64,000 nucleotides of DNA from Saccostrea echinata (GCF_033153115.1 NW_026889753.1:3782001-3846000); one strand, 5' to 3'; counted from the first letter of the stretch, positions 6,063 through 9,280 are shown. The notes: generated by a model not told the origin, from the sequence alone. Made by a program: numbers and translations.

Positions 6063-7295
6063 TCATTCTATATTTACAGTAACAAAAAACAGAACTATCA
6101 ACAAGGCGTTGATTATAGTCACAATATAACCAAACACTTTGTCCAGTTCTAAAGCTAATTTTTGCCAAGAATCTGTCTCACAACCGAAACACATCATCGT
6201 TTCACTGTCGTTTGATTGCAATGAACTTCTTGTTTCGTTGTCATTTTTGTCATTTGAAATGGAACGATTTAATATCCAAGTATACACCCTGTTCATTTTT
6301 GTTCCTTTTGGTTTATAGTAAATAAAACTTACAAATACCTCTAGGAGTATCGTAATGCCACTCATCACAAGGTGCATAGTCATGAAAATTCCGAATTTAA
6401 ACACGTGTTCAGAAGATCTAGGAACTGTGGAACTTATTAAAGTCATGAATACGGCGAACGTTAGAAATATTGCCATTGTCATGCCTATTTTTTCACCGGA
6501 CCCAATTGGAACAAGAAAGCAAACCATATTTAAAACCGATAATAGAAGAATTGGCAGTACAGTACTATACAAATAAAATAAGGGCTTTCTGTCCATCACA
6601 ATGAAGAACTCCAGCTCAGTAAAATTTTTGTCGTTTACTATGAGATCTGTTTTAATATTTGAGTCAACAATATCCCATTCTTCACTAAGGACGTAATTAC
6701 TAAAATCTATGTTATTGAACTTTGGTGTTAGCTTAACTTTCTCATCCTCGGAGTACCAGGTTCCAATACGAATGGAACACATTTGACTGTCAAAAGGATA
6801 TCGGCTAATATCCACATCACATCTCGTCTGCACCTCTCTATTCCACCACAGCGTGACTTTGCCGGTATATTCCAGCAGTGATTTTCCTTTCTCTGATTTT
6901 ATCAAACACTTGTTGTTAGTAACTTCATTTGCAATGCATACATCGGGTACCCAGAGTTTTTCTTCCGGAACAACAATTGAGTCAATATGCGCAAAGTGGC
7001 TGTGGTTCCAAGCCATGTGCATGTCTGTCCATTCCAAGTCGATCCACACAGTGGTCCGAAGTGTCTGGGACCTCTCTATTAAAGAGTGCAGCGTCACTAA
7101 GTTGACGGAAACATTGACAGTGATGGGTTTGTGATAATCAATTGTTGGTCGTACATTCGGATGGTACTCGCTTACATTTTCATTGAAAAGTTTTTCAAAA
7201 AGCCTATATTCTGGATGATCATCACGTTTAAATGTCAATGCAGTGACATAAGTGCAGTGCAATAAACTAAACATCAAAATCCACATACTCAACAT
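6063..7295 (-). CDS. Intronless Cys-loop ligand-gated ion channel subunit, nAChR-like, non-alpha (410 aa)
   Basis: Signal peptide; VRP, WxD and WVPD motifs; Cys loop CDVDISRYPFDSQMC; four TM helices; GEK before M2; no vicinal CC in loop C. Confidence 0.95.
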   Translation of the reverse strand: MLSMWILMFSLLHCTYVTALTFKRDDHPEYRLFEKLFNENVSEYHPNVRPTIDYHKPITVNVSVNLVTLHSLIERSQTLRTTVWIDLEWTDMHMAWNHSHFAHIDSIVVPEEKLWVPDVCIANEVTNNKCLIKSEKGKSLLEYTGKVTLWWNREVQTRCDVDISRYPFDSQMCSIRIGTWYSEDEKVKLTPKFNNIDFSNYVLSEEWDIVDSNIKTDLIVNDKNFTELEFFIVMDRKPLFYLYSTVLPILLLSVLNMVCFLVPIGSGEKIGMTMAIFLTFAVFMTLISSTVPRSSEHVFKFGIFMTMHLVMSGITILLEVFVSFIYYKPKGTKMNRVYTWILNRSISNDKNDNETRSSLQSNDSETMMCFGCETDSWQKLALELDKVFGYIVTIINALLIVLFFVTVNIE

Positions 7296-7357
7296 TTTGC
7301 TTAAAATTCATAAAGTGATCGTTGAAGCTCAGTTTCAGTTTCTTAAATATCCTTATG

Positions 7358-7365
7358 TTATATAA
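7358..7365 (-). promoter_or_regulatory. Candidate TATA box for the leftward receptor gene
   Basis: TTATATAA about 65 bp upstream of the ATG at 7295; the AT-rich background lowers significance. Confidence 0.4.
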
Positions 7366-7888
7366 CTCCTGTCTTCTTATCTTGGATATGGGCATATTGC
7401 GCTCATTCTTAGAAATTCATCTTAAAATAAAATTGTTTAGGAGGAAATGAGGTATGGAGTCTCCTGTAAATATAGAATATGAATCATGTTAATTCTAGTT
7501 TTGAAAAGATTGATGATTAATGTTTATCAATGATATAATCGAACAGCAAGAGCGTAGTCCCACTTGAGAATTTTCTCCCTCATAAAAATGATGAAAAATT
7601 AAAATCGCTGAGGGAATTCATAATGCAATTTTTAAGTGAAATCTAATCGAAGCCTGTGTCTGACTTTACTAGAAAATACATCATATGAAAATAACATTCA
7701 GGAACGTTTAAGAATACACATCAATACATGTATAAAGAAAAACACTCTATTGATAATTGAATAATAACAGCATAATCAACAATTTGGAGTTGCTCACTTA
7801 CCAAAATGGATAATCCTTAAACCATATTCAATTTTGAGTATGTGACACACGATTCTTATCACGAGGTTTTCTCTACTCGTATGTGATG

Positions 7889-7897
7889 TATATATAA
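7889..7897 (+). promoter_or_regulatory. Candidate TATA box for the rightward receptor gene
   Basis: TATATATAA about 65 bp upstream of ATG 7958, with an Inr-like acagtc near 7927. Confidence 0.45.
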
Positions 7898-7957
7898 TAT
7901 TTATTTGTGGAGCCAAATCGGGAAAACAGTCATCGAGTGAGGCGGGTGAATCTCAGA

Positions 7958-9280
7958 ATGAATGTTTTTATCACTGTGTACTGTGTGATATTTGGAATTA
8001 TCTGGACAGTGAGAGGAGATTCGCATGAGTCCCTTGTTCACAGTGCGGTATTTAAAGATTATAATACCTGTATTAGGCCTGTCCAAAATTCCTCCTCACC
8101 AATTACGGTCGAAATCAGCTTAGTACTTCAAAGCGTGTACGGTGTGGAAGAAAAACACCAAACATTATATTCTTCTGTTGGAATCGAATTAACATGGGTT
8201 GATGAATTTTTATCGTGGAATTCTACAAACCTTTACAATGTCGACACGATCCTTGTTCCATTAAAATTAATTTGGAGACCTGACATCTGCATAGAAAATG
8301 ACTTATCCGATAACAAATGCTTGAGTGCGGAGTCGGTAGTACAAGTGAGTTCAGAGGGCCAAATAAAATGGCGGTTGACTAAAGAACTGAGAACTGAATG
8401 TGAGATAGACATAACAGAGTATCCGTTTGACAGACAGTCATGTGAGATACGAGTCGGTACTCTGTACTCTACCGACCAGAAAATCCGATTTAGGATCAAG
8501 CAAGGTTCGACAATCTCATATCACTTCAAGGAAAGTGGTGAATGGAAACTAATGGGGAAAAACTTTGAAAGAGTCCAATATACATTTGCTCAAAAGAATT
8601 TTACCTATGTCAAAGTTAAGTACGACTTAGAGCGCCTGACTTCGTTCCACGTTAATACTATGATTATACCCCTTATAATTCTGTCATGCCTTAATCTAGC
8701 TTGTTATTGTATTCCTTTTGACTGTGGAGAAAAAGTGTCAGCATCCATTGAAGTATTTCTGGCCTTTGCTTTCGTCTTGATTGCGATAAATGATGAAATT
8801 CCAACAACTTCAAGACACATCTTCACTTTTGGACTGTTGATGTCATTACAATTAATTTTCAGTGCATTGTCGGTAATAATTAATACTTTCTTGTCCTACT
8901 TATACCATCACAACTCGGATATGCCAGTGTCTACATTTTTCCAAAAATTATACTTAACAATTCATGGGACCCGAACACCGAGAAAGGGAAACAAGCCTAC
9001 TGAAGTAAAAGAAACGAGTACTAGTATATGCGATGGCCCTCAAAGACTCTCCAGGCGTTCCAATAAATCTAGGGAAAGTGGAAGATACAATAAGAGAGAT
9101 TCCACGCGAACCACGGCTTCATCCATCCGTTCTAGGCACTCGAAGTACTCTGTTTGTTCCCAAGCATATAATATTGACTGGACTCTATTTGCCATTGAAC
9201 TTGAGAGGAAAGCATTTATTGTAATGTTAATTCTGAATATCTTAAGCTATCTTATTTTTCTATGCATTGTTTTTAGCTAG
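7958..9280 (+). CDS. Intronless Cys-loop ligand-gated ion channel subunit, nAChR-like, non-alpha (440 aa)
   Basis: ATG 7958 gives signal peptide MNVFITVYCVIFGIIWTVRG; IRPV and WRPD motifs; Cys loop CEIDITEYPFDRQSC; GEK-M2; four TMs; no vicinal CC. Confidence 0.93.
   Translation: MNVFITVYCVIFGIIWTVRGDSHESLVHSAVFKDYNTCIRPVQNSSSPITVEISLVLQSVYGVEEKHQTLYSSVGIELTWVDEFLSWNSTNLYNVDTILVPLKLIWRPDICIENDLSDNKCLSAESVVQVSSEGQIKWRLTKELRTECEIDITEYPFDRQSCEIRVGTLYSTDQKIRFRIKQGSTISYHFKESGEWKLMGKNFERVQYTFAQKNFTYVKVKYDLERLTSFHVNTMIIPLIILSCLNLACYCIPFDCGEKVSASIEVFLAFAFVLIAINDEIPTTSRHIFTFGLLMSLQLIFSALSVIINTFLSYLYHHNSDMPVSTFFQKLYLTIHGTRTPRKGNKPTEVKETSTSICDGPQRLSRRSNKSRESGRYNKRDSTRTTASSIRSRHSKYSVCSQAYNIDWTLFAIELERKAFIVMLILNILSYLIFLCIVFS

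Follow-up and report, generated by a model that had tools for sequence, protein, structure and literature searches.

The window analysed here, a 64,000-nucleotide stretch of DNA from the oyster Saccostrea echinata (GCF_033153115.1 NW_026889753.1:3782001-3846000), carries two divergently oriented genes, A and B, whose products resemble subunits of nicotinic acetylcholine receptors (nAChRs). A preliminary description made from the DNA alone (the sequence-only reading) had reported two intact head-to-head genes, and an open reading frame (ORF) scan bears this out, placing the two ATGs 662 bp apart. The genes form part of a repeated unit.

4956-9575, both strands: extent of the A/B cassette (about 4 kb), with further copies at G000:C4:3743861-3747803 and 3768455-3772740
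6063-7295, minus strand: coding sequence of gene A, an intact ORF for a 410-amino-acid nAChR-like subunit
7958-9280, plus strand: coding sequence of gene B, an intact ORF for a 440-amino-acid nAChR-like subunit with a long basic M3-M4 loop

Both proteins match the Pfam domains PF02931 (Neur_chan_LBD) and PF02932 (Neur_chan_memb) above cut-off, share about 30% identity with one another, and find their best matches (~1e-44) among vertebrate nAChR alpha subunits. The Cys-loop, with its C-x13-C spacing, is formed by C159-C173 in A and C148-C162 in B, and the M2 segments of both window proteins contain the -1' Glu (within GEK) and the 9' Leu. A structural model of B, built from a 117-row alignment, adopts a confident full fold (predicted local distance difference test score, pLDDT, 87.5); its best structural match is alpha7 (Z 32.0, root-mean-square deviation 5.3, 358 residues aligned), and Foldseek searches with it return vertebrate nAChRs only, among the matches listed. 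On domain content, motifs and fold, A and B are assigned to the Cys-loop pentameric ligand-gated channel subunits of the nAChR-like, cationic type. Judged by their lack of coding introns, their clustering and their lineage-specific clade, they belong to the known bivalve expansion of intron-poor nAChR-like genes, of which bivalve genomes are reported to hold 99-217 (sections consulted of PMC6896357). An Atlas search returned generic family matches only, and a literature search, conducted mostly without subscription papers, found no account of the A/B pair. The pair is real, was partly misdescribed earlier, and is a variant inside a known family, its arrangement being the unusual part.

That arrangement centres on the spacer between the two ATGs, which contains the following features.

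7296-7463, minus strand: 5' untranslated region (5'UTR) part of gene A exon 2, covered by contigs as far as the splice joint and containing the TATA-like word reported earlier for A
7464-7801, minus strand: 5'UTR intron of gene A, 338 nt, with its joint in runs X1, X3 and X4
7802-7957, both strands: shared head region, comprising gene A exon 1 (rightwards from 7802), the gene B 5'UTR and a likely bidirectional promoter
7889-7896, both strands: palindromic TATA consensus, a candidate core promoter, kept in three of three cassettes

Contigs of five runs (X1-X5), representing at most three samples and two studies, were aligned to the window. None of these runs is on record as RNA; all are presumed to be RNA, as judged from a splice joint and empty flanks. 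Contig cover is mainly limited to genes A and B, and the flanking bins at 9522-10274 are empty. In three of the five runs (X1, X3 and X4; two studies) contigs skip 338 nt bounded by GT..AG on the minus strand; the joint was not seen in X2 or X5, where a hole proves nothing. Both splice sites of this intron are kept in the alignment of all three cassettes. The earlier description of the genes as single-exon consequently holds for the coding sequences and fails for the gene A transcript, which has a 5'UTR intron at 7464-7801. Because of the position of this intron, exon 1 of gene A ends at 7802, only 156 nt from the B ATG. Unbroken contigs identical to the window extend over 7801-8025 in X3 and 7801-7991 in X4, a stretch within which the other two cassettes differ from the window at 14-17 places. 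Since these contigs run from A exon 1 into the B coding sequence, the 5' regions of A and B overlap or abut in some molecules.

Within the spacer (7296-7957), TATAWAWR is matched on both strands by the palindrome at 7889-7896 and nowhere else. Such words are common in this AT-rich window (1.5 per kb) and the motif could by itself be a chance occurrence; it is the splice evidence, not the motif itself, that places the palindrome between both 5' ends. We infer that one palindromic TATA could serve both genes, and that A and B probably share a promoter. The sequence-only reading had instead given each gene a TATA-like box about 65 bp upstream: B's box is the palindrome, whereas A's word lies inside spliced exon 2 and does not match TATAWAWR. 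Two separate TATA promoters are rejected on account of that exon 2 position. A gap in X1 cover at 7850-7938 was not used as evidence of two separate starts around the TATA, as the contigs there are cassette-2-like and contig ends show no start.

Both additional cassettes lie just upstream of the window and were missed earlier; they are 89.3% identical to the window over 3995 nt and 91.4% over 4369 nt. A genome search with the spacer gave exactly three matches. Among pairs of family loci lying within 20 kb of each other (n=44), 40 are tandem, three divergent and one convergent, and all three divergent pairs are copies of the A/B cassette. Variants in the run contigs agree with cassette 1 at 15 of 16 listed differences (one X4 contig), with cassette 2 at 12 of 13 (one X1 contig), and with the window copy as well; all three cassettes appear to be transcribed. 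The possibility that the three cassettes are an assembly artefact is rejected, given their 89-91% identity and the presence of variants of each in run contigs. Between cassettes 3 and 1, the ratio of non-synonymous to synonymous substitution rates (dN/dS) is 0.38 for A and 0.32 for B, or 0.20 and 0.24 over the core only, and these ratios indicate that both genes are under purifying selection. Near the cassettes lie retroelement remnants (L036:6235-7185, L031:8-1189, and L034:8254 to L035:2155), comprising a zinc-knuckle gag, a chromodomain-bearing integrase and one tyrosine-recombinase element, which may have helped the duplications.

Orthologues of A were found in S. cucullata (82% identity), C. 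virginica (71%), M. gigas (63%) and O. edulis, and orthologues of B in four sequence clusters at 46-57% identity, all intact and all keeping an acidic residue at M2 6'. B is the faster-evolving gene, with 46-57% identity to its orthologues versus 63-71% for A. A maximum-likelihood tree was computed from 45 chosen sequences, in which an acr-16-like protein of a mite and an alpha4-like protein of amphioxus, and no true molluscan beta subunit, stood for the canonical type. The B lineage (ultrafast bootstrap 100) is sister to A plus relatives (83), with a scallop clade (95) close by. In this tree both genes belong to a divergent group of bivalve sequences, distant from the two canonical-type references; further analyses gave the same picture. 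Two scans of metagenome contigs for orthologous A/B DNA found nothing. Four pairs of A-type and B-type records occur on contigs of equal size, versus 0.37 expected from offsets (58 x 38 distinct sizes; Poisson p ~6e-4): P0042 (O. edulis cluster, A-type) with P0083 (B-type) at size 3687, P0052 and P0061 (M. gigas cluster, A-type) with P0127 and P0123 (B-type) at sizes 6775 and 4222, and P0143 (A-type) with P0108 (B-type) at size 4123. Each match fits one contig bearing both orthologues, and the A/B pair has probably been kept together across oysters. Co-regulation, as proposed in the sequence-only reading, is a probable reading and now better supported than at first, by the abutting or overlapping 5' ends, the duplication as a unit and the probable pairing across oysters.

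The place of the pair within its family was assessed by searching the genome with A (102 matches) and B (96), which gave at least 111 distinct loci. The family set comprised 105 distinct single-exon ORFs of at least 280 amino acids; duplicates, broken copies and intron-rich canonical genes were left out. As stated earlier, both proteins lack the loop C vicinal cysteines and the loop A Tyr of the acetylcholine (ACh) site (the latter position being Ala122 in A and Glu113 in B), and loop B reads GTWYS in A and GTLYS in B. The vicinal cysteines, however, are present in only 11 of the 105 single-exon members and absent from 94, the loop A Tyr is present in 17 and the loop B Trp in 60. Loss of the ACh site is rejected as a distinguishing mark of the pair, as it is the family norm. 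The earlier suggestion of a non-cholinergic ligand is likely to be right, as a property of the family at large and no mark of A and B. By alpha-type tests of ACh binding, A and B lack both the vicinal cysteines and the complete aromatic box with W55. By comparison, 33 of 132 nAChR-like genes in C. gigas are alpha-type and 13 have the full site, according to the part consulted of Jiao et al. 2019 (PMC6896357). A and B each have a further Cys pair close to loop A, a feature shared by roughly one family member in four.

A separate single-exon clade on G000 C54 (L026-L029, L053-L057, L062) and C56 (L101) mostly has the loop C Cys pair; the full ACh site occurs in some of its members and Asn at 6' in several, and the clade is a candidate set of intronless cholinergic alpha subunits on these sequence features. 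Family loci with identical scores occur on different contigs (G000 C30:35894933 and C54:27376429; C14:7069601 and C64:7773427), which suggests some redundant haplotype contigs in the assembly.

Pocket residues, placed in alpha7 numbering from alignments, set A and B apart. A has W84 (W55), W150 (119), W180 (W149) and F225 (Y198), and lacks Y93 and Y190. Because six listed oyster orthologues (with Tyr for Phe in M. gigas) and three scallop proteins share this aromatic set, it is old, and on alignment an aromatic box could form at A/A interfaces. B has G75 at W55 and L169 at W149 and lacks Y93; throughout the B lineage, in copies and orthologues alike, position 55 is Gly or Glu and position 149 is Leu. 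F198 and a Tyr at 190 are present in B, the Tyr not being kept by its orthologues. In the pore, A has Ala at M2 6' together with GEK, and B carries a distinctive codon.

8750-8752, plus strand: codon of Glu265 in B, an acidic residue at the pore-lining M2 6' position and a mark of the B lineage, from sequence and surveys

An acidic 6' residue occurs in eight of 235 sequences, namely seven B-lineage rows and A2, the gene A of cassette 2, and in four of the 105 members in the S. echinata genome. The B orthologues of other oysters lack the -1' Glu, which A keeps. Among the sequences surveyed, an acidic 6' kept across oysters is unusual for the channel family, and a literature search for an acidic 6' or for 6' mutant data found nothing. 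From alignment and general channel knowledge, B resembles an accessory subunit that would alter the pore. Vertebrate alpha5 and beta3, which are subunits of ACh receptors, have the accessory role proposed here for B: they stand outside the main agonist site and tune permeation and desensitisation. Neither is known to have an acidic 6' residue. In A2 (L034:3548-4780; G000:C4:3769548-3770780) the 6' Glu was gained by one base change; it is the only non-B case among the 235 sequences, lies in the cassette whose B is shortened, and could reflect compensation or decay.

The RNA-like contigs indicate that genes A and B are expressed. For the site of expression we turned to the M. gigas A orthologue P0050, whose Cys-loop is identical to that of OYG10025998 in supplement 2 of PMC6896357 as consulted; the B-type Cys-loop is not in the C. 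gigas list of that supplement, as far as the part consulted goes. The values available come from one data set, for A only, at organ level (supplement 7 of PMC6896357, in the part consulted). Expression is highest in mantle (8.4), followed by female gonad (3.2), gill (2.6), digestive gland (1.7), palp (1.6), male gonad (1.5), haemocyte (0.4) and adductor (0.25); by stage, it does not exceed 0.47 up to pediveliger and reaches 1.6 in spat and 3.2 in juveniles. Mantle expression fits a sensory or an internal role alike. A receptor for larval settlement cues was considered and rejected, as the M. gigas A orthologue stays at or below 0.47 through pediveliger.

The reading that we prefer, at a probability of roughly 0.42, is that a shared promoter drives a heteromer of a ligand-binding A and an accessory B, gated by a ligand other than ACh. 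An old inverted duplication would have left A and B with a common core promoter near 7889-7896, and both would be made in the same cells. A would supply the agonist site, because A alone has aromatics at both faces, the principal one with W149 and F198 and the complementary one with W55 and W119, and an amine or another small aromatic-binding ligand would suit that site; ACh appears less suited because Y93, Y190 and the Cys pair are missing. B would serve as an accessory subunit placing an acidic residue mid-pore, at 6', and changing permeation or gating, a step to which we give slightly better than even odds once the shared promoter is granted. A and B would co-assemble into a cation channel, acting probably in juvenile and adult mantle. 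Our certainty falls in the order of shared promoter, A agonist site, B accessory role and mantle site. A bolder extension, on which oysters, independently of cephalopods, would have evolved a two-part mantle chemosensory channel with a ligand-tuned A, a pocket-less B, an acidic ring shifted from -1' to 6', and a single palindromic bidirectional promoter, the pair being inherited, duplicated and expressed as a unit, is in our judgement unlikely.

Several observations weigh against the heteromer driven from a shared promoter. The promoter core is 96-98% identical between cassettes, hardly above the 91-96% of its flanks. The contigs give neither transcription starts nor strand, the RNA nature of the runs is a guess, and the cover of A and B comes from bulk samples, not from the cell level. 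The roles of pocket and pore rest on alignment to vertebrate receptors and on general knowledge. The B copy of cassette 2 is interrupted by a stop after residue 296 and shows a Pro at M2 9' and indels further on, A2 being open. Pairing in other oysters is read from matching contig sizes, not from DNA; O. edulis has three A-type proteins, A to B not being 1:1 everywhere; and no B-type match bears the name of S. cucullata or C. virginica or falls in a cluster with either. Linkage could persist merely from promoter sharing, and head-to-head genes are sometimes anti-correlated (PMC1487180, as consulted).

If linkage reflects the promoter only, A and B may be co-expressed and yet form two homomeric channels, or each may join other members of the 100-gene family. 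We regard this as doubtful. A has both pocket faces and on sequence grounds needs no partner, extra A-type paralogues occur in O. edulis, cephalopod chemotactile receptors (CRs) form both homo- and heteropentamers (PMC11526382, part consulted), and Alvinella Alpo4 is homopentameric (PMC10338036, part consulted). B, however, looks incomplete alone: it lacks aromatics on both faces, would place five potential acidic residues at 6' in a homomer, and has orthologues without the -1' Glu. A different reading makes both proteins non-alpha subunits of a cholinergic receptor that includes a third, ACh-binding alpha subunit, the ligand then being the animal's own ACh or choline. Non-alpha subunits are defined by the absence of the Cys pair, the W55 of A is a complementary-face residue of ACh sites, and the 11 of 105 single-exon members with a Cys pair are possible partners. 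This arrangement is nonetheless improbable, as A and B group with divergent bivalve sequences, well away from both the canonical-type references and the genome's own Cys-pair members, and the conserved W149 and W119 of A would be superfluous in a pure beta role.

The same unbroken contigs from A exon 1 into the B coding sequence are compatible with antisense overlap, and the overlapping 5' ends might act as a switch in which transcriptional interference makes cells produce either A or B; negative correlation is known among head-to-head pairs (PMC1487180, part consulted). Set against this, A and B are both covered in four of four runs X1-X4, a weak point as these are bulk runs chosen for containing the stretch, and close head-to-head pairs are mostly correlated and most are functionally associated, according to the same paper as consulted. 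We hold such a switch to be highly improbable. Equally slight is the chance that B, carried along by the inverted duplication, does not conduct or is decaying, and that A alone matters. One of three B copies is broken and B diverges faster than A (46-57% versus 63-71% orthologue identity), but dN/dS is 0.24-0.32 between the intact B copies, B orthologues in four clusters are intact with the acidic 6' kept, and the B model has a confident full fold (pLDDT 87.5).

Among known systems, the closest working analogy to the proposed A/B heteromer is Caenorhabditis elegans DES-2/DEG-3, two nAChR-family subunits likewise coupled by genome organisation, which form a heteromer in sensory neurons that prefers betaine or choline to ACh (PMC8602785, PMC8747062, in the parts consulted). 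DES-2/DEG-3 are encoded by a one-strand operon and belong to a nematode-specific group, whereas A and B lie head-to-head and would share a bidirectional promoter; heteromer and ligand are proven for the former and proposed for the latter. The expanded intron-poor genes of bivalves share with A and B the single-exon coding sequences, the clustering and the loss of the ACh site, but are described as tandem arrays; no bidirectional pair is described, and neither an acidic 6' nor a 5'UTR intron is mentioned, in the sections consulted of PMC6896357. Alvinella Alpo4 is likewise a lophotrochozoan nAChR-like protein without the vicinal cysteines (Z 28.1 to the B model), yet it is a homopentamer, remained an orphan after ligand screening and has no known partner gene, unlike the paired A and B (PMC10338036, as consulted).

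Like A and B, the cephalopod CRs CRT1 and CRB1 are nAChR-derived, have intronless coding sequences, and lack the ACh signature; they can form heteromers, as is proposed for A and B (PMC11526382, PMC13174522, PMC10338036, in the parts consulted). Unlike A and B, CRs are mainly a cephalopod clade with proven ligands. The sequence-only reading had drawn a link to these receptors, for which we find no specific support: the B model scores higher against alpha7 (Z 32.0) than against CRT1 (Z 23.6, 24% identity) or CRB1 (Z 23.3, 22%), sequence identities being similar throughout (22-24%), and neither CRT1 nor CRB1 is among the best 60 sequence matches of A or B. A CR-like clade extending to bivalves has been reported (PMC13174522, part consulted).

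For nearly all bivalve nAChR-like genes no ligand is known, and screening one subunit at a time can fail, as with Alpo4 (PMC10338036, part consulted). Here the genome names a concrete partner pair for co-expression, a likely tissue (mantle after settlement) and one pore residue. The published catalogue for the Pacific oyster apparently lacks B (PMC6896357, in the part consulted). If the pair is a true environmental sensor, it would give bivalves an ionotropic chemoreceptor, of interest for sensory evolution and for the behaviour of shellfish.

Elsewhere in the window, a short element at 10721-10770 is matched by many unrelated contigs in four runs (X1-X4) and is a dispersed repeat present in transcripts. 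On the plus strand, 56646-58052 and 61585-63258 hold two tandem TIR-domain genes of a single ORF each; their related helical C-terminal region has no Pfam match, and they are likely immune paralogues. A satellite-like tandem array at 40514-41281 gives spurious ORFs. A multi-exon Daxx gene (27285-45361, minus strand) has Pfam Daxx and DAXX_hist_bd matches on two exons and very long acidic exons; its last exon ends in what we take to be a SUMO-interacting-like motif, and a short in-frame tandem repeat lies within a long exon at 43400-43600.

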